Below are positions 31,992 to 51,378 of a DNA stretch of 64,000 bases, piece by piece (the stretch's first letter is position 1; each line of letters opens with the position of its first letter). The stretch is from Longimicrobiales bacterium. Its GTDB lineage: Bacteria > Gemmatimonadota > Gemmatimonadetes > Longimicrobiales > Gaopeijiaceae. Made by a program: the position numbers and the translations under genes. The DNA lies in the NCBI GenBank assembly GCA_965249725.1, contig CBDFMQ010000002.1, positions 2,496,001 through 2,560,000 on the forward strand. Reading direction: 5' to 3'. The notes under the pieces are model-generated. The model was given only the letters and a program-made list of their open reading frames with translations. It had not been told where the DNA came from and made no database searches.

Positions 31992-32450
31992 TCAGTTCTC
32001 GAGCGCCTTCAACTTGCGGTGCATGTCAAGTCGGTCGGCGCGGAAGTCGGACTCGTAGCGGTCGAAGCGGACATCCAGGCCGTCGAAGCGGCTCTCCAAC
32101 CCGTCGAATCGGACCTCGAGGCGGTCGAAGCGCTCCTCCAACCCGTCGAGTCGGACCTCGAGGCGGTCGAACCACCCCTCCAATCCATCGAACCGAACCT
32201 CAAGGTCGTCGAAGCGGCTCTCCAGGTGGATGAAGCGGACTTCGAGACCCTCGAACTTGGACTCCAGGCGCTCGACCCGGGCCTCGATGCGGTCGAGTCG
32301 CTCGTTGGTGGCCACCAACCCGTCCACCACCTGGCGAACGTCGTCCCTCATCGCCTCGACGCCCACCTCCAGCTTGGTGAGCCTCGTTTCGATCCTGTCG
32401 AATCTCTTCCCCAGGAATTCGACTAACTCGGAGAATTCGCTGTCGGTCAT
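31992..32450 (-). CDS. Coiled-coil heptad-repeat protein
   Basis: Repeats of (R/K)FDxLEx across most of the 152 aa; 21/42-bp DNA periodicity. Confidence 0.7.
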   Translation of the reverse strand: MTDSEFSELVEFLGKRFDRIETRLTKLEVGVEAMRDDVRQVVDGLVATNERLDRIEARVERLESKFEGLEVRFIHLESRFDDLEVRFDGLEGWFDRLEVRLDGLEERFDRLEVRFDGLESRFDGLDVRFDRYESDFRADRLDMHRKLKALEN

Positions 32451-36794: not shown

Positions 36795-37056
<262 letters not shown>

Positions 37057-37143
37057 ATTTGCAGGGCCTCATCCGGCCGCTGCGATGCTAATGATCGCCA
37101 CTTCACTGCGCGGGTCAAGGTTCGGGGGCGACCGCTGAAACGG

Positions 37144-37178
37144 GAAACGCGCCCGCCGCCGGTTAGGCGACGGGCGCG
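37144..37178 (-). terminator. Hairpin/terminator after rnpB
   Basis: CGCGCCCGCCGCC-GGTTA-GGCGACGGGCGCG with a short adjacent A run. Confidence 0.55.
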
Positions 37179-37183
37179 ACAAC

Positions 37184-37565
<382 letters not shown>

Positions 37566-39548: not shown

Positions 39549-40897
39549 CCGAGGGCGCCGGGCTGACCCGCGAGACCTTCACGTCCCGGCTGGGGCTTGT
39601 GGCCACCATGATCGGTGTGGCCGTGGGGCTCGGGAACGTGTGGCGGTTCCCCTACATGGTGGGGCGTTTCGGCGGAGCGGCGTTCGTGCTGGTCTACCTG
39701 CTACTCGCACTTCTGATCGGGATTCCGGCGCTGATGGCCGAGTGGTCCCTCGGCCGCCACACACGCCGCGGCAGCGTCGGCGCCTTCGCCCAGGCCGGCC
39801 TCCCGGCGGGAAGGGCCCTCGGCTGGTTCTTCTTCTTCGCGGTCACCGCAGCGAACGGCTACTACAGCACGGCCATCGGGTGGGTTCTGTATCACGGCGT
39901 AGGGGAGGCCGCGGCGTTGGTCGGAATGCCCTTCGACGCATCAGGGGTCCTTCCTCCCGAGGCGGGATTCAGTCCAAGGTCGTTGGGACTGCAGCTGCTG
40001 TGCACCTCTACCGTCGTACTTGCCTGTGTCGTGGTGTTGGTGAGGGGACTCAGGTCGGGAATCGAGCGTGCCAGCTCGGTGATCACCCCCCTGCTCTTCG
40101 TGATCCTCATCATTCTGGTCGTGCGCGGGCTGACGCTGCCCGGAGCAGAAGAAGGGGTCCAGTGGTTTCTGTTCAAGTTCGAGTTGAGCGACTTGAACGC
40201 GGCCGTGGTTCTTGCAGCGCTGGGCCAGGTAGTCTTCTCTTTGGCGCTGGGCGGCACCTTCATGGTTGTGTACGGATCGTACCTGAATGAAAGCGACGCC
40301 CTCGGGTCGAACGCCATTCTCACGGTCCTGGGCGACACCGGAGCGGGCCTCCTCGCCGGGCTGGCCATCTTCCCGGCGGTCTTCGCGCTGGGCCTCGAGC
40401 CTGGAAGCGGTCCGGGGCTCATCTTCGCGACCCTTCCCCAGGTCTTCTCCGGCATGCCCGCGGGACACCTCTTCGGCCTCCTTTTCTTCGTCGCGCTGGG
40501 CAGCGCCGCCTACCTGAGCGCGGTGGCGGCTTTCGAGGTGCTGGTCGCCGGTCTGACCGACAACACGGACATGGACCGGAGCCGCGCCGTCTGGCTCGTG
40601 GCAGGCAGCGTCGTCCTCTTGGCGATCCCGCCGATGATCAACCTCAAGATCTTCATTCCCTGGGATCTCACGTTCGGGACGGGCTTCCAGACGGTCGGAG
40701 CACTCGCCGCAGCGGTGACCGTCGGATGGGCGCTGAAGCGAGGTGACGCGCTGAAACAGCTGGCGGGTGACCGGGCGGACGAGAGGCTGTTCAGATGGCT
40801 CTACTTCTGGATCCGCTTCGTCGTCCCGGGAGCCATTCTGGCCGTGGGCACCTGGTGGGTGCTCACGGAAGTGCTCGGTGTCGTGGGCGGCGTCTAA
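39545..40897 (+). CDS. Sodium-dependent transporter, NSS/SNF family
   Basis: SRLGLVATMIGVAVGLGNVWRFPY..GGAAF, QVVFSLALG, YGSYL, GPGLIF; GTG start overlaps the upstream TGA. Confidence 0.9.
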   Translation: MTEGAGLTRETFTSRLGLVATMIGVAVGLGNVWRFPYMVGRFGGAAFVLVYLLLALLIGIPALMAEWSLGRHTRRGSVGAFAQAGLPAGRALGWFFFFAVTAANGYYSTAIGWVLYHGVGEAAALVGMPFDASGVLPPEAGFSPRSLGLQLLCTSTVVLACVVVLVRGLRSGIERASSVITPLLFVILIILVVRGLTLPGAEEGVQWFLFKFELSDLNAAVVLAALGQVVFSLALGGTFMVVYGSYLNESDALGSNAILTVLGDTGAGLLAGLAIFPAVFALGLEPGSGPGLIFATLPQVFSGMPAGHLFGLLFFVALGSAAYLSAVAAFEVLVAGLTDNTDMDRSRAVWLVAGSVVLLAIPPMINLKIFIPWDLTFGTGFQTVGALAAAVTVGWALKRGDALKQLAGDRADERLFRWLYFWIRFVVPGAILAVGTWWVLTEVLGVVGGV

Positions 40898-41868
40898 GGA
40901 CCGCCGGCCATCCAGCGGTAGATCCCTCGGACATTGAGAGAGAACCACGCGTCGTACTGGCCCCAGTGGCTGAACTCGGGCAAGCGGATCTCCTCAGCGG
41001 CTCTGTCTTCCGACCATCCTGCTTCGATCGCGGCTCTGACCTCGGATCGAAGCTGATCGTAGTAGGCGATCTGGCGACGGATGGAGCTTCGGTCCCCGGA
41101 CGGGCCGTGCCCGAAGACCATGGTCTCGAAGTCGATCTCCAGGAGTCCGGTGAGGGATTCGAAGAAATCAGGAAAGACCCAGGACCCCATGTCCTGATAG
41201 CCGACACGATCGTGGGACACGAAGTCCACGGCGAACGCCACCTGTACGTCCGGAACGAAGACGACCGTCGAGTTGTCGGTGTGGTTGGCCCCGACGTAGT
41301 GGAGCTCGATGTCCCGGCCACCCAGGTTGAAGGACATGAACTCTTGGTATGTGACCGTGGGCACGGGAAGGTCGGGGCTACCGGCCGCAGCAATGGGCGC
41401 GGCCGCGTTGCGGTGCGCCAGAATCGGCACAGTCTGACCCATCTCGCCCATGAGGGCCGGAGCGCCCGTCGCGTGGTCGGCGTCCTTATGGCTATAGACA
41501 ATGGCCACCAGCGGAGCGCCGGGTGCCACCTTCTCGATCTCCCTGGCGTACTGCGTCGCCGCCTCCGGAGAGATCGGGTCGACGGCCACGACACCGGCCG
41601 GGGTGACGATGAAGAACCCGTTGTGTCCCTGCCACCGATACTGATAGACCCCATCGGCGACGCGGGTCGTCTCGTAGTCCGGGGTCTGTGCCTCGACAGC
41701 GCGTGCACCGACCGCCAGGGCGCCGACCGCCAGGGGACCGACCGCGAAGGGACCAAGCGCCATCGGCCCGAACGCGACCAGCGAACCAGCCACGAACCCG
41801 GCCAAGGACCACATCGTCTTCGACCGCAGGGAACCGCATGTGACTCGTCTCATGGAAGTGGTCCTCAT
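40894..41868 (-). CDS. Exported metallo-beta-lactamase-fold hydrolase
   Basis: VAVDP, YSHKDADHATG (variant HxHxDH), NHTDN, FAVD, VFGHG; signal region with GPxAV repeats; ATG overlaps the upstream TGA. Confidence 0.8.
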   Translation of the reverse strand: MRTTSMRRVTCGSLRSKTMWSLAGFVAGSLVAFGPMALGPFAVGPLAVGALAVGARAVEAQTPDYETTRVADGVYQYRWQGHNGFFIVTPAGVVAVDPISPEAATQYAREIEKVAPGAPLVAIVYSHKDADHATGAPALMGEMGQTVPILAHRNAAAPIAAAGSPDLPVPTVTYQEFMSFNLGGRDIELHYVGANHTDNSTVVFVPDVQVAFAVDFVSHDRVGYQDMGSWVFPDFFESLTGLLEIDFETMVFGHGPSGDRSSIRRQIAYYDQLRSEVRAAIEAGWSEDRAAEEIRLPEFSHWGQYDAWFSLNVRGIYRWMAGGP

Positions 41869-42602
41869 GGAATGGTGGGCAGCATGGCGCCGCTGTCTAA
41901 CAGGTCCGTGGCTATCGTCGCATCGAGGGCGAAGACGAGCACGAACCCTCCGACGCCCAGGATCAGAGCGATCATGAACACAGTGTAGGATATCCGAAGC
42001 AGCTGAAATTTCTTCTTGAGCACCTGACCGAGTCCGTACAGATCCCTCACCATGTTGATGTAGAGATGGTCGGGCGTCAGCATCAGGTCCTTCATGCCTT
42101 CCACGAAGTCGCCCTCGGAAAGGTTCACGAAGTTGCCGAAGAAGAGGATGTTGGCGTCGTTGCGATCGATGTCCTCCAGCGTGAGCGGCTGGCTACTGAC
42201 TCTGGGGCGCGCCGCCAGGACCGCGAAGACCAGGGCGGCAAGGCAGCCCAGAAGCAGAATGCTCACGGGCAGGACCAGGAGCGGCAGGCCCCCGATACGC
42301 GGTGCCAGCGCGGCGAGTGTGATCGAGATGATCAGACCGTTCACGCTGATCATGATATTGGCCTTGCTGTCGGCCAGGCCGACCAGATCCTGGTGGACCC
42401 GGTAGCTGGTCCGGAACATCGTCTCGATGCCACGCGACGATCCGAGAGATGTCGGCTTGTTCTTCTTCTTCTTGCCCTTCTTGGCGCCGTCCGCCACGGG
42501 GGCCTCTCCTCCACCGCCAGGGACTCCCGCGGACACGTCCGCCTCGACGCCCTCGCTGGCGGCCTCCGTGGCGTCTCTCGGTTCGTTCTGCTCTAAGTCC
42601 AT
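41865..42602 (-). CDS. Pycsar-effector-like membrane protein (DUF5706)
   Basis: RGIETMFRT..H..L..LADSKANIMISVNGLIIS, FAVLAARP, NILFFGNF, DLYGLGQVLKKKFQLLRISYTVFM; ~3 TM segments. Confidence 0.82.
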   Translation of the reverse strand: MDLEQNEPRDATEAASEGVEADVSAGVPGGGGEAPVADGAKKGKKKKNKPTSLGSSRGIETMFRTSYRVHQDLVGLADSKANIMISVNGLIISITLAALAPRIGGLPLLVLPVSILLLGCLAALVFAVLAARPRVSSQPLTLEDIDRNDANILFFGNFVNLSEGDFVEGMKDLMLTPDHLYINMVRDLYGLGQVLKKKFQLLRISYTVFMIALILGVGGFVLVFALDATIATDLLDSGAMLPTIP

Positions 42603-42618
42603 GCGTTCTCACTCTGGC

Positions 42619-44767
42619 TCAACGGGATCGGACCTCCCCCAACAGTTCTTCCAAGTACCGGTACGTGTCAATCTGGCTGCGCACGGACAACGCTCCGTCG
42701 GCGGTCACGAATCGGTTGCTCTGCTCCGCGTCGATCATCCGGGCCTTGGTGTTGTCGGCGAGCTGAAGGCCCAACACGTGCTTTAGCTGGGCCTTAACGT
42801 CGGGATCATAGATCGGAAACGCGACCTCGACCCTTCGGTTCAGATTGCGGGTCATCCAATCGGCCGAGGCCAAATACAGCCGCTCGGCACCCGCTGCGTT
42901 GAACAGGTAGATGCGCGAGTGCTCCAGGAATCGGTCTACGATGCTACGGCCGGAGATCGTTTCGCTGAGGTCGTCCACCCCCGGGCGGAGGCAACAGATA
43001 CCTCGAATCAAGAGCTGAACCGGGACACCCGCGGCACTGGCCTCGTAGAGCCGGTCGATCATGCCACTGTCCTGGAGGCTATTCATTTTGGCGGTGATTC
43101 CCGAGGCTCGCCCGGCCCGTGCCTCGTCGATCTCGGCCTCGATGAGCGCGTTGAAGCGGTCCCTCAGGTGATGGGGCGCCACGAGGAGGTGCTCAAAGTG
43201 AGGCTCCACGTCCTCGCCGCCGAGAATGCGGAACACGCAACGCACCTCTTTCGTGAGCCTCTCGTCGGCGGTCATGAGCCCGTGGTCCGAGTAGATGAGT
43301 GCGGTGTTCTCATTGAAGTTGCCCGTGGGCCAGGAGCGCGTAGTACCGGTTGGCGTCACCCTCGCGTCGCTGGATGAGCGCCAGCTTGGCGTGCACCTTG
43401 ATCCCCTGCCGGCCATAGAAGGTGCGCACCCCGGCGCGCTCCATCCGCTCGGCCCACTCCAGGTTGAGCTCTTCATCGAAGCGCGCCTGAACCTCGACGA
43501 AGGCCGACACGTCCTTGCCGTTCCGGGCGGCCTCGATGAGGGCTTCGACGACCGCGGAATCCCGGGCGACCCGATACAGCGAAATCCAGATGGCGTTCAC
43601 GCCGGGATCGGCCGCCGCCGCCTCGATAAAACGCACGACACGGTCATACGACTGGTACGGGAAGTGCAGCAACCGGTCCCGCTCCGAGACGGCTTCGAAC
43701 AGGTTCGTGGCACTGTCCAGCGCCGGATGGCCCAGCGGGGGGAGTGGCGGATCCTCATGCTCGGGCGCGTCACCCGCCGGGAATCCGAACAGGTCGTGTA
43801 GGTTGTGGTAGCGCCCTCCCAGGATCAGGTCCTCATCCCGGATTCCGAGGCCGACTTTCACACGGTTCATTATCACATGAGGGAGTCGCATGTCGTAGAG
43901 GAAGCGGATCGGGATCCCCGTGTCGCGCTTCTTCAGGCTCTTCCTGATCGCCTCCTTGAGCCCCTGGTCGAACTCGTCGTCGAGATGCAGGTCGGCGTCC
44001 CGGGATACCTTGACCGCGTATGCCCCAGCCACGACCTGGTCCGGGAATACGCTCGGGAGGTTGTGTCGGATGATGTCGTCGAGGAATACGACGTAGCACC
44101 GGTCACCGGTGACCGGAATGGAGAGGAACCTCGGGAGGGGCGGACTCGGGACCTCCACGAGCCCCAACCTCGGTCCGGAGGATCCCACTCTTATGTCCTG
44201 GCTGGGCTGGAGCTCTACGACCAGGTAGACCGTGTGGTCCTTCAGGAAGACCCCCTCTCCACCCTCCTCCAGATACGTAGGCTTCAGGAGGGGCCCGACG
44301 TGCTCGACGAAGTAGTCCTCAAGGGTCGAGTGGTACTCCTCAGGTAGTCCGACCTCGTCGACGAGGTCGATTCCCGCCTCGTTCAGCGCTGGGAGGATCT
44401 GCTCTCGGAAGGCGGCCCCGAATCGTTCCTGCTGTGCGAGCGCGACGTCGTGGATCTCGCGGAGTAGGCGCGAAGGGTTCAAGCGGCGCTTCTTGCCCTT
44501 CTTATTCTTGATTGAGAGAAGGGCCCTGAGCGACGCCACTCGTACACGAAAGAACTCGTCCAGATTGGACGAGAAGATGGCGAGGAACTTGAGGCGCTCG
44601 AAGAGCGGAACCGCCGGGTTCTCCGCCTCTTGGAGCACCCGCTCGTTGAAGGAGAGCCAACTCAGCTCACGGTTGACGTAGCGCTCGCCGGTGGAGTCAA
44701 CGCCCAACCCCGCCTCGGTCGGATCCTCCTCCGCCACGAGGGCGCTCGGAGTGGTGCGATCCGTCAC
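42619..44767 (-). CDS. ppk1: Polyphosphate kinase 1, split by a +1 frameshift at ~43328
   Basis: YVNRELSWLSFNERVL, FLAIFSSNLDEFFRVRVA, ARFDEE.N, KVHAKL in one frame; TGNFNE.TA.IYSD, KMNSL, RGICCL, VDRFLEHSR, SADWMTRNLNRRVE in the other. Removing one G from GGG 43327-43329 restores YALLATGNFNE. Confidence 0.92.
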
Positions 44768-44769
44768 CT

Positions 44770-47505
44770 TCAGAAGGAGAATCCGAGGCCCCCGAGGAGT
44801 CGGGTCGAGTCGTCGGACTGAGCCACGGTTACCGAGATGAGAGGCGTGTGTTGCCGTAGGAACGAGAACCACACGCCGCCGCCGTAGGCCCAACGCCAGA
44901 GGTCTGAGTCCTCACCCTCGAGGTACACGCGCCCCACGTCGACCATTCCGTGGACTCCGACCTGTCCCGGAAGAGGGCTACTCAGCGCACCCAGGCGCAG
45001 CCGCAGCTCACTCTTCGCGAAGACCATGGCGTCGCCGGCGTAGCGGTCATCCGCCGCACCTCGGAAGTTCTCCGCACCGCCAAGATAAGCCGCGCTGAGA
45101 TAGGGATAGTCGCCCCACAGCTTCTCACCGCCCACCTCGAGCGCGAGGACGGGTGACATGGGCATGGTCGCCTGCAGGAAGACCTCCGCAGAACCCGCCA
45201 CGCTCCCGTAGTCGGACCGCAGCTCCGAGAACTCCGGGAAGTACGTGGCCTCTACCTGAATGCGAGCGCCCTTGGTCGGAAACCAGGCGTGGTCACGAGC
45301 ATCCCAATCGATCCCCGTCTCGATCCCGAACTGGAACAGGTCCGAGAACCCGTACGGACTCTCCTGGGCAATGAGCCGTCCCTCGTTCTTCGACTGCGAA
45401 TGCAGATCGAGTTCGAACAAAGCTCCGCCTGTCAGGACCACGTCGCCCGACGTCCAACTGAGTTCCGATTCGAAGGTCAGAGCCTGGCGATCGACCTGGT
45501 AGAAGTCGAGATCATCCGAATCCGACTGGACGGTCTCGTTCCCTAAACCGAAGAATCGGTACCGGTCGGCCCCCTGGTATCGCGCGCGTGCCTCGCCGCG
45601 AAGCCTACCCACGGGAAAACTCGCGCGCAGCTCCACGAGCGGAAGCTGAGTCGCCGTCCCGATCCCGACCGTATAGCCCACCGAGCTACCGTACGGGTAC
45701 TGGCGAAAGGCGAAGCTTCGCCGGTTCGCACCCATCTCACCGTATACGCCCTTCCTCCCGCCGATCTCGAAGAACGGGAAGTACGTCCACGCGTGACCCC
45801 AGTCCCGGGGAGGTGCTCCATAGCTCTCGACCACGTCGGGAGCATCGTAGTCGTACTCGTGAACCGATGTGTTCCGCCCCCGGGTGATCTCGTTGTTCCC
45901 GCGATCATCGTGGAACTCGACTCGCCCCGAACCACCGGTCTCGTCGAGGAGTACATCGGCCCGGCCGCCTCCTACGATACGGAGGGTCACCCGCGCATCG
46001 GCGTCGCCCCGCACCACAGCCCGGTCCTGCTCACCCAAGAGGTAGAGCCGCACATCTTCGGTTTCTGAGCCGAGGAAGGTCCGATCGTAGTATGCGTCTC
46101 CCCTGGGCTGTTCGTCGCTGTCCTTTTCCCAGAGCCGGACGCGCACCCGGTCTCCCTCCAACCACTCTACGAGGGCGTACTCCTCCTCGTCGGTTCCGTA
46201 CACGTCCACGTTGCGCACGAGGAGGTCGTAGAACGCACGCGCCTGGACCATCAGGTTATCGCGGCGCTGGGTCAGGGCGCCCAACATGAACTCCCCCACC
46301 CGATCGTAGTACGGAGCGGGCATGCGCCTCACCGCATCCCGAATCACATCGTCGTTCAGCCTCTGTTGGAGGTCGGAGGCGATGGCCTGCCACATGCTCC
46401 ATTCGAGGCCGGTGAGGAACTTCCGGTCCAGGGCTCGGCCGGACCAGGTGATCTCGATGGCCGATGGGTAGTCCTCCTCGAAGCCTACCAGGTGGCGCGC
46501 CACGCTGGGAGAGATGCTCTTGAACCACTTCAGGAGGAGGCCGTCCAGCCTCGTCAGAGCCCAGTCCCGATCTCTGGGCACGGGCCTGAAGACGAGGACA
46601 CCGTCGTTCTCGAAACCGGCCCAACGCCACTGGTCGGGGTGCCGGTCCCAGTCCCCCACGAACATGTCCAGCAGTCGAGCGCGCAAGAAATCCTCCGCGT
46701 CGACGCGGTTGTCCGGGTCCTCTTCCAGTCGCTCGAAGAGGCGATCGGAGCTGATGACCCGAGTGGACCCCGCGAAGCCCGGCTCGCCGTTCTCTCCCTC
46801 GTCGGGCCGCTCTTCGATGAACCCCAGGAGTCCGGCGAATTCCTGCTGGAACTCACCCAGGCGAGGCTCGTCGGGCATGACCACGAGTGTCGGGTCGGGA
46901 TGCAAGACCCCCGCAGCCTCGAGGAGCGGGGCAACCACGATGGCAGACATGGGGAAAATGGCAGAGATCTGGTCCTGCTGTGCCCACGCGACGAACGTCT
47001 CCTGCAGCAGCGGGTCTAGACCCCGAGCTGCGTCCTTGTCGATCGAGCGGAAGTTGTAGAGGACCCCGTCCTCCCCGCGCATCCTCAAGGATGAGGTCTG
47101 CTTCCCTCCGCCCCGCCGCACCACCGTGAGTCCGCCGGCGTAGTCATCGAAGTCGAGTACCTGCGCTCTGACGGGAATCCGCCAGAGCTCCCGCCAGCCA
47201 TGCCCCATCATGGCGGCGCGCCACGGGTGCGCATCGTAACTCCGCCCCGCCGCACCACCGTGAGTCCGCCGGCGTAGTCATCGAAGTCGAGTACCTGCGC
47301 TCTGACGGGAATCCGCCAGAGCTCCCGCCAGCCATGCCCCATCATGGCGGCGCGCCACGGGTGCGCATCGTAACTCATGCGCGGAGTCGCGAGCACCGAG
47401 TCTCCTCCCGAAGGCGTCTGCGCCGCCCGGGGCCGGCCCAGTCAGCAAGGCCAGGCCGAGCAACACGAGCCCCAGCCGGCTCAGTGCCGTTGGCGAGAGG
47501 ATCAT
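44770..47505 (-). CDS. Outer-membrane Omp85/BamA-TamA-like barrel fused to an N-terminal atypical kinase-like domain; 5' end disrupted as assembled
   Basis: Signal peptide from ATG 47505; GGGKQT loop, DWDRHPDQ and PRDRD motifs; C-terminal strands with LGGAENFRG..DRYAGD and terminal GLGFSF. Interrupted by an extra base near 47427 and a 134-bp duplication. Confidence 0.75.
47106..47373. repeat. Exact 134-bp tandem duplication
   Basis: 47106-47239 equals 47240-47373, with CTC microhomology at the junction. Confidence 0.93.
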
Positions 47506-47669
47506 CGTTGGCTCCGTTGGAATACGGGGTGGAGAGGCGGTGTGCATCGGGACGAGAGGTGTCGATCTAGTAATGGCCATCGGCCCCACACGGGGCAAGC
47601 GTCCTTGTTGCGTGCCGCTTCCTTGTCGATCTTCGGTCGATCTGCGACTACTCTCAAAAAGCACAGGCG

Positions 47670-48194
47670 ATGCTGAACGTTCCACACACGCGGCTCTTGG
47701 CAGTCCTACTGGCGGTTTTCCTGCTGGCTGTGCCACGTCAGGCTCTATCGCAAGACGGGGCCACGGTGGTGTACCTCGTTAGGCACGCCGAGAAAGTCGA
47801 CGACTCCAAGAACCCTCCCCTTTCGGCGGCCGGCCGTGAGCGGGCGGCGCTTCTGGCGAACATGCTGCGCGACGCGGGACTCACACACCTGCACAGCACC
47901 GATCTGGAGCGCACGCGAGACACGGCGGCGCCAGTCGCAGCCCAGCTGGACCTCGAGATTCACTTCTACGATCAGCGTGATCTGCCGGGATTCGCCGAAC
48001 GACTCCGCGCCACACCCGGACGGCATCTGGTGAGTGGTCATTCGGACACCACCCCGACGATGGTGAGGCTGCTCGGGGGTGAGACGTCCGACATCGCCGA
48101 TCCGGAGTACGACCGCCTCTATGTGCTCACGCTCGAGCCGGGCGGGCAGGCGACGACCGTACTGATCCGCTTCGGGGCATCCTCCGGAGGCTGA
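47670..48194 (+). CDS. Exported histidine phosphatase (SixA/PGM-like)
   Basis: Signal peptide, YLVRHAEK, LSAAGRERA, STDLERTRDTA, VSGHSDT. Confidence 0.88.
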   Translation: MLNVPHTRLLAVLLAVFLLAVPRQALSQDGATVVYLVRHAEKVDDSKNPPLSAAGRERAALLANMLRDAGLTHLHSTDLERTRDTAAPVAAQLDLEIHFYDQRDLPGFAERLRATPGRHLVSGHSDTTPTMVRLLGGETSDIADPEYDRLYVLTLEPGGQATTVLIRFGASSGG

Positions 48195-48269: not shown

Positions 48270-49862
48270 TTGGCCAGCATCGCACTAGCAGAAACCCAAC
48301 CCGACGTTCTGAAAGCCCTGAGATCTCTCGGTGGCCGCGGTACCGTGGGCGACGTCGTCTCGAACGCCGGACTCCCCCGCGACCAGGTGGAAACCACGCT
48401 CAAGGGCCTTCTCGAGACCCACGAAGGGCACCTCGAAGTCTCGGACTCGGGGGAGCTGGTCTACCTGTTCGACAAGAAGCTGATCCGACGCGATCGCGTC
48501 TCGACGATCGAACGCCTCAAGGCGACCGCCCGGACCTTCCTGACCGGTGCGTTCAAGGCGTGGATCGTCACGATGCTCGTGGTCTACTTCGTGGTGTTCG
48601 TCGCCTTGGTCGTCGCGGCCTTGGTGGCGATGGCGTCGCGTGGCGGAGACCGGAGGAGTGGAGGAGGCAGTTGGGGACGAGGCGGCGGTCGGCACAGCGG
48701 TCACTTTCACTTTCCGAGCTTCTGGCTCTGGTACTACATCTGGACCCCGCGCTGGCGGCTGGGCCGCCCGTACTACGGTCACCGCTGGGAGAGGACCCTC
48801 GAGAAGGACAACCGCCCGCCCTTCTACAAGAAGGTCTTCGCGTTCGTCTTCGGTCCCGACCGGCCGAGGCCGACGCAGAAGCAGCTCGACCGATCCACCC
48901 TCCGCCTGATTCGGGCGCGAAGGGGCGTGCTGACCACGGCCGAACTCATGGAGCACAACGCCCTCCCCCGCCCCGAGGCCGAGGACGAGATGGGTCGACT
49001 GCTCGGATCGTACGCGGGGGAGCCGACCGTCTCACCGGACGGAGAGCTGGTGTACGCGTTCCCGGAGCTGATGGTGAGCGCCCACGGGCCTGTCACCGCC
49101 AAGGAGCCCAACCCGGCCTGGCTCCGCATGGAGTACCCGCTCGAACTCACGGGCAATGAGAAGAAGCACGATGCGCTGATCGCCGGGATGAACGGATTCA
49201 CGCTGGTGGCCGGAGCCACGGCACCCTGGTTCATATTCCCGCAGCTCGGCATCTCCGGGCCTGCCGCGTTCGTCGGGCTCGTGTTGGTGCCCGTGGTGTT
49301 CAGCGTGCTCTTCTTCGGTGTGCCCCTGCTGCGCATGATGGGAGTGCGACGCGAGAACAAGGCACGCAAGGCCCGCAATGTGAGACGCCTGGTCCTGGGG
49401 CTGGTCTACCGAGAGGCTCTCGCCGGACGTGGAGCCGTGACGGTGGAAGCGGCCGCCGGCTACGTGCGGAACCGCCTGAAGGACCAGGCGGTCGATGATG
49501 TCGAAGTCGAGGCAGCCCTCCACTCCATCGCCGCCGAGTTCAATGCCGACGTCACCTCGGGAGCCGACGGGTCCTTGGTGTTCACGTTGCCTGCGATCCG
49601 GCGAGAGTTCGTGGCGAGTGAGATGGTACGTCAGGGCCTCGCACTGGAAAACCGCAAACTGGGCGACATCGTGTATTCGAGCGCCGACTCGTCCGTGGAG
49701 GCCTCCAAACGAGACCTGGACGAATTCGACCGGCAACTCGCCGGCGCGGAGATGGACCTGAGCGGTTATCTGCCGTCGCCAGACCGGGCGGGCTTCGAGG
49801 ACGACTACGAGATCGTAGCGTTCGATGAGGAGCTGCGGGGCAAAAGCATCAAGCGGGGCTAG
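48270..49862 (+). CDS. Conserved membrane protein resembling the plastid/cyanobacterial At5g03900 family
   Basis: RGTVGDVVSNAGL...EGHLEVSDSGELVYLF, TM, VFAFVFGP, RGVLTTAEL, GEPTVSPDGELVYAFPEL. Confidence 0.65.
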   Translation: MASIALAETQPDVLKALRSLGGRGTVGDVVSNAGLPRDQVETTLKGLLETHEGHLEVSDSGELVYLFDKKLIRRDRVSTIERLKATARTFLTGAFKAWIVTMLVVYFVVFVALVVAALVAMASRGGDRRSGGGSWGRGGGRHSGHFHFPSFWLWYYIWTPRWRLGRPYYGHRWERTLEKDNRPPFYKKVFAFVFGPDRPRPTQKQLDRSTLRLIRARRGVLTTAELMEHNALPRPEAEDEMGRLLGSYAGEPTVSPDGELVYAFPELMVSAHGPVTAKEPNPAWLRMEYPLELTGNEKKHDALIAGMNGFTLVAGATAPWFIFPQLGISGPAAFVGLVLVPVVFSVLFFGVPLLRMMGVRRENKARKARNVRRLVLGLVYREALAGRGAVTVEAAAGYVRNRLKDQAVDDVEVEAALHSIAAEFNADVTSGADGSLVFTLPAIRREFVASEMVRQGLALENRKLGDIVYSSADSSVEASKRDLDEFDRQLAGAEMDLSGYLPSPDRAGFEDDYEIVAFDEELRGKSIKRG

Positions 49863-51378
49863 ACCCAACCTCGACCGACCCGCGGACCCCCGACGCTCGA
49901 CCCCGAAACCCCGAGGACGCTCGAGCCCGAAGCTCCGATTGCGCTCGACTCCGAAACCCCGATGTGGACGATTCAACGGACACTTCCAGGGCCTCGAGCG
50001 CCCGCTTGAACACGTCGGAGGGGATGTCGACCTCGCGCTTGTAACGGGCCGACCCGGTGAAATAGTCGGGCTCGATGCCTCGGGCCCGGTTCTCCTCAAT
50101 GAGCGCCTCGACAGGCTCGGGAGTCAGCGGTGGGGTCGGGGATGGCTGGTCGGGGATCATCCTCATCTTCGGATCGAGGAAGTAGAGCCGCTCCCCCCGA
50201 GGGAAGTGAGCCGTATACCCTTCCTCGTGCACCAACCGATGATGAAACTGGCACAGCAGCACCAGGTTCTCGAGCTTGGTCGCTCCACCGTCGGCCCAGT
50301 GCCTGATGTGATGAGCGTCGGTGAAGCGGAGGCCGCAACCCGGGAATCGGCATCCTCGGTCCCGGGACTCCAGCGCCCGCCTGAGCGCCGGCGGCATCGT
50401 GCGAGTCTTGCGGCCCACGTCAAGAATCGAACCAGCGGGTGACTCGATGAGCCGCACCACGCTGGCGTCGCACGAGAGCCTCCGGGACGTTTCCGCGGAA
50501 ACGCGTGTGCCGTCTTCGAGGTCGGAACGGCCGGGCTCCGTGTCGGATTGCAGCGTGGGCGCCTCGACGTGCAGGACCACTTGGTAGCGTTCGGCCCGGG
50601 TGCCGCTGATGGGGGCTGTGTGGTCGCGTCGATCTTCAGCACGCTCCTGCCCGAACCCGGCCGCCAGCGCTCTCTCCGCCACCAGCCCCACCGCATCTGC
50701 CCGCCGCTGCTTCGGTGTGACGTCCTTTGAGGAACCGGTCAAAGCGTCCTCGCCAGAAGCGCTCTCACGGAACAGCGCGTCACTCGCCGCATCCACAGCC
50801 TGCAGGAGCATCGCTCCCGCCTCCGGATCCAACCGGCCACGCACCACGTACATGCCCTCTTCGTCCGGGAACACTGAAAAGCAGCGCGAGCGATGACGCA
50901 TCCGCTCGAACTCGGCCTCGTCGTGCCGGCTCAGGCTACGCCACGCCCGCACCACCCGCTCCAACTGGGCCGCCGTGCACGAGTGGGCGAGCTCGAGCAG
51001 CTCCCCCTCACTCGCGGGAGTGGCCACGCGCGTGAGCGCCCTCACCTTGGCGAAGGACAGCTCCCCCTGGGCCATGGACGCACCGATCCGAGGAAGCTCC
51101 ACGAGGGCACGCGAGGCTCGCACCCTCTCTCGGGCGGCCCCCAGATCGATCCCGGTGCGGAAGGCGAGCCAGTGGGCGCACGACCTGTGGCCGCCGGGCT
51201 CCCACCCTCTGAGCCGGTCGAACTCAGCGATCAGGGTGAGAAGGCGGTGCTCAGCGGCATGGATGTGCGCGGCGAGTGTAGCGATCTCGTCCCCCAAATC
51301 CTGGAGGTCGTCGAGGTGGTTGTCGGAGCTGGTGGGAGCGTACGGGACATCTGGAACAGTGAGCGTGGCGGGACGCAT
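49849..51378 (-). CDS. DUF222-domain HNH endonuclease (13E12/Rv1128c-like)
   Basis: SCAHWLAFRTG, GELSFAKVRALTRVA, RRLSCDA, LDVGRKTR..PPALRRALESRDRGCRFPGC, DAHHIRHWADGGAT.LENLVLLCQFHH..VHE. Confidence 0.9.
   Translation of the reverse strand: MRPATLTVPDVPYAPTSSDNHLDDLQDLGDEIATLAAHIHAAEHRLLTLIAEFDRLRGWEPGGHRSCAHWLAFRTGIDLGAARERVRASRALVELPRIGASMAQGELSFAKVRALTRVATPASEGELLELAHSCTAAQLERVVRAWRSLSRHDEAEFERMRHRSRCFSVFPDEEGMYVVRGRLDPEAGAMLLQAVDAASDALFRESASGEDALTGSSKDVTPKQRRADAVGLVAERALAAGFGQERAEDRRDHTAPISGTRAERYQVVLHVEAPTLQSDTEPGRSDLEDGTRVSAETSRRLSCDASVVRLIESPAGSILDVGRKTRTMPPALRRALESRDRGCRFPGCGLRFTDAHHIRHWADGGATKLENLVLLCQFHHRLVHEEGYTAHFPRGERLYFLDPKMRMIPDQPSPTPPLTPEPVEALIEENRARGIEPDYFTGSARYKREVDIPSDVFKRALEALEVSVESSTSGFRSRAQSELRARASSGFRGRASGVRGSVEVGSSPA

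Follow-up and report, generated by a model that had tools for sequence, protein, structure and literature searches.

A gene set made of a predicted kinase domain fused to an Omp85 barrel, of the polyphosphate kinase gene ppk1 and of a small membrane protein gene of the PycTM (DUF5706) family forms the conserved core of a locus carried by a Longimicrobiales bacterium. The locus was analysed in a stretch of 64,000 nucleotides, called here the window (GenBank assembly GCA_965249725.1, contig CBDFMQ010000002.1, positions 2,496,001 to 2,560,000). The window holds one copy of what is probably a conserved housekeeping module of the envelope, a variant of the still unexplained triad formed by a polymerase, a membrane protein and an exported kinase. 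The three genes are found together in two phyla and likely provide an undescribed route by which polyphosphate reaches enzymes of the envelope. The core genes and their parts are the following, in window coordinates.

44770 to 47505, minus strand: kinase-Omp85 fusion gene (signal peptide, predicted CotH/PI4K-like kinase domain, beta linker, 16-strand Omp85 barrel, no POTRA).
47424 to 47505, minus strand: putative signal peptide of the barrel protein, from its hydrophobic N-terminus and a position shared with the relatives P0002-P0007.
46213 to 47211, minus strand: predicted atypical protein-kinase-like domain (glycine loop GGGKQT at 47095-47112, DWDRHPDQ at 46630-46653, PRDRDW at 46561-46578).
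44773 to 45795, minus strand: Omp85-family beta-barrel, with 16 strands in the model of the relative P0003.
42619 to 44767, minus strand: ppk1, frameshifted at about 43327; the break falls after the KVHAK histidine and the last domain is lost.
41865 to 42602, minus strand: PycTM/DUF5706 three-helix membrane protein of 245 aa.

The barrel, ppk1 and PycTM genes and a metallo-beta-lactamase-fold (MBL) gene are co-oriented on the minus strand. Two nucleotides separate the barrel stop codon from the GTG start of ppk1 and 16 separate ppk1 from the PycTM gene, while a histidine phosphatase gene starts on the opposite strand, 164 nt from the barrel ATG (47505). This arrangement had been described in an original prediction made from the sequence of the window, and the coordinates bear it out. 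The gene identities proposed at that time also agree with Pfam, which detects Omp85, all four Ppk1 domains, PycTM, Lactamase_B and His_Phos_1. Promoter and terminator scans of the locus gave counts at chance level.

The composition of the core was established by gene neighbourhood analysis. The best 80 of 278 barrel loci from GTDB, mostly from Gemmatimonadota, were examined with our own gene caller and profiles; their flanks extend to 8 kb at most and many are short contigs. All counts out of 80 refer to this sample, and all co-occurrence counts reported here are inflated by kinship and genome size. The ppk1 gene is present in 31 of these loci, PycTM in 29 and both in 20, and the linkage for which the original prediction had proposed a survey is conserved for the three-gene core. 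In 17 loci ppk1 lies immediately upstream of PycTM, and the two genes overlap in 10. The other neighbours are a class III cyclase (18 loci, two of them with another type), an SdiA-regulated propeller (15), SixA (14), DUF4956 (8) and a metallophosphoesterase (8); cyclase and PycTM are found together in 12/80. In a panel of 41 related genomes, the barrel is encoded by 22, PycTM by 13 (three of these matches being weak and Pycsar-like) and ppk1 by 30, and none of the 11 genomes devoid of ppk1 carries either the barrel or PycTM. The cyclase-TPR gene found ahead of the barrel gene of relatives has an orthologue elsewhere in the same genome as the window (C3:2766056-2767971), which is split in the assembly into frames of 297 and 341 aa.

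PycTM is also found fused to other domains, as observed among the best 120 of 248 longer PycTM proteins listed, to which the following counts apply. Most of them are HD-PycTM proteins. Three are full-length Ppk1-PycTM fusions with a mutual identity of 66-73%; two of these are single frames in the genomes G153 and G157, which both carry the barrel elsewhere and are the only 2/61 genomes of their family with a strong PycTM match. A phytase-like propeller follows helix 3 at the C-terminus of four proteins. A single cyclase-PycTM fusion was found; it is real in genome G104, where it lies directly behind an exported CotH-like kinase and where no barrel kinase was matched. Since PycTM has three helices, Ppk1, HD and cyclase would be positioned inside and the propeller outside. 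HD-PycTM genes adjoin ppk1, with or without SixA, in L116, L128, G060, G093 and G087. Excluded from these counts are two partial Ppk1-PycTM proteins and a barrel-Ppk1 protein, all three of which seem to have arisen by deletion. Two further arrangements come from metagenomes: about 30 near-identical loci (L176-L218) that encode PycTM-propeller fusions of about 670 aa beside housekeeping genes, with no ppk1 or barrel nearby, and a 4-kb contig (L204:374-3379) on which PycTM, a phytase-like gene and a phosphate-selective porin O/P stand in a row.

Parts of the module are exchanged in some loci: DUF4956 takes the place of PycTM, and the barrel is replaced by a soluble CotH-like kinase. The 31 barrel loci that contain ppk1 include PycTM in 20 cases and DUF4956 in 5, and both in none; those with DUF4956 usually carry a CYTH-Ppk1 fusion. 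Two of the 80 loci, both without ppk1, combine PycTM and DUF4956. The soluble exported CotH-like kinase adjoins either DUF4956 (contig C1 of the same genome as the window, and L063) or the cyclase-PycTM gene of G104. A parallel with VTC/DUF4956/CotH neighbourhoods, already suspected in the original prediction, is therefore supported part for part by these swaps. No VTC, DUF4956 or CotH gene was detected by Pfam in the window operon itself, the VTC profile not having been searched in the rest of the genome. The C1 locus (410034-412139) consists of DUF4956 followed by the exported CotH-like kinase, with no adjacent polymerase.

The N-terminal domain of the barrel protein has, as judged from predicted models, a CotH/PI4K-like kinase fold, and its function is a predicted one. 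Residues 1-350 of the window protein were modelled with a pLDDT of 93, and Foldseek matched this model to CtkA, HipA, PI4KII and CotH. A fold comparison against 48,161 chains placed CotH (Z 15.4, rmsd 4.0, 249 aligned residues) and PI4KII-alpha (Z 14.7) in a tie within 1. The modelled domain shows the glycine loop and the catalytic and metal-binding aspartates of the CotH/PI4K/HipA group, and the motifs DxDRHxxQ and PxDRD are kept in 120/129 and 117/129 kinase domains, respectively. An exported kinase-like domain on a barrel, as first proposed from the sequence, is thus supported by model comparison. Pfam gave no match on this domain at E-values up to 5, CotH (PF08757) included, a profile comparison between the barrel kinase and the soluble CotH-like neighbour kinase found none either, and a sequence search of solved structures with the barrel protein returned barrel matches only; an atlas CotH score of 0.78 is taken as a lead only. 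By analogy with the Pseudomonas protein PlpD, the kinase domain is probably located in the periplasm.

Intact relatives of the barrel protein are about 865 aa long, and 1574 of 8000 scored candidates match it. The full model of the relative P0003 (pLDDT 91) comprises a signal peptide, the kinase domain, a linker of short beta strands and a 16-strand barrel whose top Foldseek matches are TamA and BamA; the window barrel scores above the cut-off of PF01103 and conforms to the 16-strand Omp85 type. No POTRA domain was detected by Pfam, and the linker (386-503) is modelled as a set of short strands devoid of helices, no fold search having been made with the linker alone. The orthologues from Bacteroidota reach about 1240 aa and carry an extra N-terminal metallophosphoesterase (PF00149) before the kinase and Omp85 domains; the window protein and its intact close relatives lack it. 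A kinase tree of 129 rows, built by a quick method with eight duplicate loci omitted, groups 70 rows from Gemmatimonadota on the same side of a branch with a support of 99, as expected for inheritance.

Ppk1 makes polyphosphate from ATP, and the reading that we tentatively prefer, with somewhat less than even confidence, is that it feeds this polymer through a predicted PycTM pore to the periplasmic kinase and phosphatases. Ppk1 would dock on the cytoplasmic face of an oligomeric PycTM pore, polyphosphate would be the cargo passed outward into the periplasm, and the predicted CotH-like kinase on its Omp85 barrel, together with partner phosphatases, would use it there. PycTM would have an N-in/C-out topology, and its gating may depend on a cyclic nucleotide produced by the cyclase/HD genes linked in relatives. 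This mechanism builds on the linkage, the fusions, the swaps and the kinase and barrel folds presented above, and on the slow evolution of PycTM documented below. It also builds on the three hydrophobic helices of the window PycTM (42300-42356, 42225-42281 and 41925-41981) and on the lysine-rich stretch located at about 42456-42482, ahead of the conserved core of the protein; the 28 residues preceding this core contain a median of 10 Lys/Arg in 43 proteins. Further arguments for it are the absence of barrel and PycTM from relatives without ppk1 and of PycTM from Bacteroidota without ppk1, the shared presence of barrel kinase and PycTM in Bacteroidota (27/29 and 27/33), and the sequencing runs, none of which has a broken barrel gene next to an intact ppk1. 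Coupled export is favoured because it alone accounts for a Ppk1 tethered on one face and phosphatase-like domains on the opposite one, for a basic vestibule and for the VTC/DUF4956/CotH parallel. The original prediction had assigned one part to each compartment; this scheme is supported for the three-gene core, on the basis of linkage, Ppk1-PycTM fusions and kinase fold, but not for the MBL protein and the histidine phosphatase. A broader version, possible yet rather doubtful, is a bacterial VTC-like machine assembled from unrelated parts, in which Ppk1 would thread nascent polyphosphate through a cyclic-nucleotide-gated hexameric PycTM and periplasmic CotH-fold kinases would use it as a donor. 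PycTM/DUF4956, Ppk1/VTC and barrel-kinase/CotH would then be interchangeable pieces of a single widespread pathway, from which the Pycsar killing pore would have been recruited.

Several observations weigh against the export of polyphosphate, and the main one comes from the Bacteroidota, where the expected ppk1 linkage was not borne out. In 71 genomes drawn evenly from this phylum, the barrel kinase is encoded by 29 and PycTM by 33, with 27 in common. The neighbourhoods of the barrel kinase were collected as 33 stretches of 20 kb at most, covering 35 of 36 matches, and ppk1 is present in just one of them. They contain instead PycTM (21, one more in L143 having been missed by our gene caller), a metallophosphoesterase (18), HD (15), a propeller (14) and a cyclase (13), cyclase and PycTM occurring together in 11/33. 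Most Bacteroidota copies stand beside this cyclase/HD layer, overlooked in the original prediction, and not beside ppk1. Given the dominance of the HD fusions and the real cyclase fusion, Ppk1 is likewise no more than one alternative among three for the cytoplasmic partner. Moreover, ppk1 is common anyway (60/71 Bacteroidota and 30/41 relatives), and the inflation of the counts mentioned above applies here as well. The Ppk1-PycTM fusions come from one family, may represent one event and keep an internal Met in their linkers. Many barrel paralogues, with up to four matches per genome, have no module neighbours at all. The kinase domain retains ATP-type pocket motifs, and we know of no kinase of CotH/PI4K-like fold that uses polyphosphate. 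PycTM is intact in 8/8 sequencing runs of the window locus although ppk1 is broken; a second intact ppk1 exists, however, in the same genome. Finally, the porin and the phosphatases fit uptake equally well.

Within the Bacteroidota panel, the 60 genomes with ppk1 include all 33 that encode PycTM, which is found in none of the 11 genomes lacking ppk1. The two genes are adjacent in three genomes, and in six genomes of one clade a distance of about 12 kb, occupied by unrelated genes, separates ppk1 from the kinase. One cyclase-TPR clade is linked to the module in both phyla; it has a Gln at the position of the Lys that is presumably typical of adenylyl cyclases. Two other proteins were noticed beside the Bacteroidota module, one of 350 aa (L152:7054-8106) with no Pfam match and with kinase-like motifs recognized by eye, the other a GAF protein of 788 aa (L153:14127-16493) that recurs in eight loci.

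The best of the competing explanations, although unlikely, takes nucleotides as the cargo or the signal: PycTM would be a cyclic-nucleotide-linked pore or receptor in envelope signalling, and the role of Ppk1 would be to provide ATP or regenerate it beside PycTM. Each of the three domains fused to the N-terminus of PycTM (Ppk1, HD and class III cyclase) acts on nucleotides, the kinase keeps its ATP-pocket motifs, a pore of 15 A could pass ATP, and the Bacteroidota cyclase/HD layer, with its frequent cyclase-PycTM pairs and the cyclase-TPR clade common to both phyla, is better accounted for. This explanation leaves aside the DUF4956 swap, the match to VTC-polymerase operons, the SixA and CYTH-ppk1 links and the phosphate porin locus; furthermore, the window operon has no cyclase, and the orthologue found elsewhere in the genome is split in the assembly.

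An inward flux, in which exported phosphatases and a porin or barrel would release phosphate from condensed or organic phosphates, PycTM would admit it and Ppk1 would store it as polyphosphate, is quite improbable. It draws on parts of scavenging type, namely metallophosphoesterases fused or adjacent (18/33 and 8/80), phytase-like and SdiA propellers, histidine phosphatases and porin O/P. The exported kinase, which is the most constant part and conserves its catalytic motif in 120/129 domains, would nevertheless be left without donor or role, and tethering Ppk1 to an uptake pore would gain little since this enzyme uses ATP and not free phosphate. Still poorer chances are given to a co-regulated phosphate neighbourhood without physical coupling, in which fusions would be accidents of overlapping genes. 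Deletion fusions do arise (P0006, P0121, P0122), gene order varies, and ppk1 is far from the barrel in most of the Bacteroidota sampled; against this, the full-length fusions were maintained while their sequences diverged by about 30%, PycTM is the common partner in four separate kinds of fusion, and the membrane partners are mutually exclusive beside ppk1.

A role in Pycsar-like abortive infection, in which the barrel kinase would sense a phage and PycTM would kill the cell, is very improbable. In its favour are the Pfam (PF18967, 97.7 bits) and PADLOC matches of the window PycTM and several Bacteroidota loci in which a cyclase gene immediately precedes PycTM. Against it, the core of the window PycTM shares 57-60% identity with the Bacteroidota copies, across phyla, and only 18-19% with a true Pycsar-like pair of the same order, the linked cyclases of relatives (n=5) score 21-49 bits on PycC models versus 182 for that control, and the kinase tree fits inheritance. 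The control pair (L168:3120-4355) associates a PycTM protein of 161 aa with a PycC-like cyclase, whereas no PycC-type cyclase was detected by Pfam or PADLOC next to PycTM in the window operon. On these sequence comparisons, the window PycTM belongs to a slow-evolving clade separate from Pycsar defence, and thousands of genes annotated as "Pycsar effector" in Bacteroidota and Gemmatimonadota probably serve another purpose than defence.

The copy of the module present in the window is itself damaged. The locus was verified in the reads of 8 of 18 listed runs, from six studies, run X1 being possibly the source sample. In the window, one extra base at about 43327 (codon 481) interrupts the ppk1 frame and leads to a stop codon at 43310-43312. 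Contigs of 7/8 runs span this break without gap and unchanged, and the extra base is absent from run X15, which carries the intact allele; the break is therefore real and polymorphic. The original prediction had missed this frameshift. A four-domain Ppk1 with the KVHAK histidine in one frame is absent from the window and from seven of the eight runs, and is present in the X15 allele and in relatives such as G002; the window locus as assembled cannot produce polyphosphate. In 6/8 runs the barrel gene also has one inserted base at 46369, within the part that encodes the kinase domain. Both genes are intact in one run, ppk1 alone is broken in one, both are broken in six, and the barrel gene alone in none; no indel was listed in the PycTM, MBL or phosphatase genes of the eight runs. 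Programmed frameshifting of ppk1 was considered and rejected, as the gene of relatives is either intact or interrupted at other positions and an intact allele exists in one run. Five other assemblies of close relatives, read at the assembly level only and thus open to assembly errors, show a break in the barrel gene or ppk1 in four cases and an internal PycTM deletion in the fifth, the neighbouring 530-aa gene being whole in all five. The module is being lost in the source species, whose genome contains the second, intact ppk1 beside sixA.

The assembled 5' end of the barrel gene contains an additional anomaly.

47106 to 47376, no strand: 134-bp perfect tandem duplication, with a loss of 2 nt at 47423; assembly artefact.

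Since 8/8 runs skip the duplication and restore the two nucleotides, both defects are assembly artefacts, and a biological meaning of the repeat was rejected. The barrel gene of the original prediction is real, but this duplication had been overlooked.

Two exported hydrolases complete the locus.

40894 to 41853, minus strand: exported MBL-fold protein with the motif SHKDADH; likely start at 41853.
47670 to 48194, plus strand: exported histidine phosphatase (RHAEK), divergent.

Both had been proposed as parts of the system, a role that was rejected because their linkage is genus-specific or nearly so: the MBL gene is present in 4/80 barrel loci, all of the same genus as the window, and a histidine phosphatase of the window type in 7/80, divergent and adjacent in five. 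The conserved exported partners are instead the metallophosphoesterase and the beta-propeller. The reported ATGA overlap between the PycTM and MBL genes does exist in the letters, but the likely MBL start, backed by a ribosome-binding site and by the first codons of four relatives, lies at 41853, 11 nt past the PycTM stop; the overlap, seen in 0/4 of these relatives, is therefore incidental. The MBL motif reads SH(K/Q)DADH, and the protein does not qualify as a subclass B1 metallo-beta-lactamase (38.4 bits for a cut-off of 200, no HxHxDH).

The rest of the window provided a few side observations. The neighbouring 530-aa gene (48270-49862) encodes a membrane protein without Pfam, NCBIfam or PADLOC match. 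A 509-aa gene (49849-51378), whose C-terminal motif we take to be HNH-like, has a 4-nt deletion at 49999 in 3/4 runs. A tRNA and an RNase P class A RNA are located at 36983-37564, and a 152-aa protein (31992-32450) is made of coiled-coil-like 7-residue repeats with a period of 21 nt.

To our knowledge, the donor source of exported CotH-type kinases and the route of bacterial polyphosphate to the envelope are open questions, and the module bears on both. With the single-chain Ppk1-PycTM fusions that occur in nature, synthesis coupled to export could be tested on one protein. Full-text literature searches returned no description of the module, nothing on DUF5706 and nothing combining PycTM with polyphosphate, in agreement with the original prediction, which knew of no functional description; subscription papers and a 2015 nucleotide-centric survey, which may cover such neighbourhoods, were beyond their reach, and the supplementary tables of the Pucsar preprint, outside their scope, may list linked cyclases.

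The eukaryotic VTC complex makes polyphosphate and releases it into vacuoles. As in VTC, the Ppk1-PycTM fusions carry the polymerase at the N-terminal end of a membrane domain with three helices; both domains belong here to other families, no homology is claimed and the coupling is putative. The closest bacterial counterpart is the set of VTC-polymerase/DUF4956/CotH accessory genes of Firmicutes and Actinobacteria, whose function is unexplained in the accessible text of two preprints (bioRxiv 10.1101/768473, 10.1101/2024.04.20.589940), polyphosphate being supposed by the available part of the second to stay cytoplasmic. Here too, one operon encodes a polyphosphate polymerase of the cytoplasm, a small membrane protein and a kinase of predicted CotH fold that is exported, and DUF4956 is common to both, as relatives contain it together with the barrel and a CYTH-Ppk1 fusion. 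Unlike in that group, as far as its accessible text goes, the window parts are unrelated or remote stand-ins (Ppk1, PycTM and a DRH-type kinase-Omp85 fusion), and no Pel link was seen. The Pycsar and Pucsar effectors have the same Pfam family and three helices, with cyclase genes adjoining in relatives (PMC11224242; bioRxiv 10.64898/2026.08.12.744502), and the available text of the latter describes PucTM as a hexamer with a 15.2 A channel. PycTM of the window type differs from what these partial sources describe by its slow-evolving clade, its basic N-terminal stretch, its fusions to Ppk1, HD, cyclase or propeller and the lack of a PycC-type cyclase. PlpD, a patatin-Omp85 protein whose N-terminal enzyme domain stays periplasmic according to the accessible part of its description (PMC11116518), has the same order of enzyme domain and barrel, with a patatin in place of the predicted kinase and POTRA in place of the all-beta linker. 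Lastly, the Bacteroidota orthologues of about 1240 aa share PF00149, the middle domain and Omp85 with the 'Metallo' subfamily of Omp85 proteins, a domain of which is called a metalloprotease in the available main text, where the word kinase is absent (PMC4104836). The window protein differs from this subfamily by the absence of PF00149, and its middle domain is a predicted kinase fold, which suggests that a kinase domain has gone unannotated in the Omp85 'Metallo' proteins.

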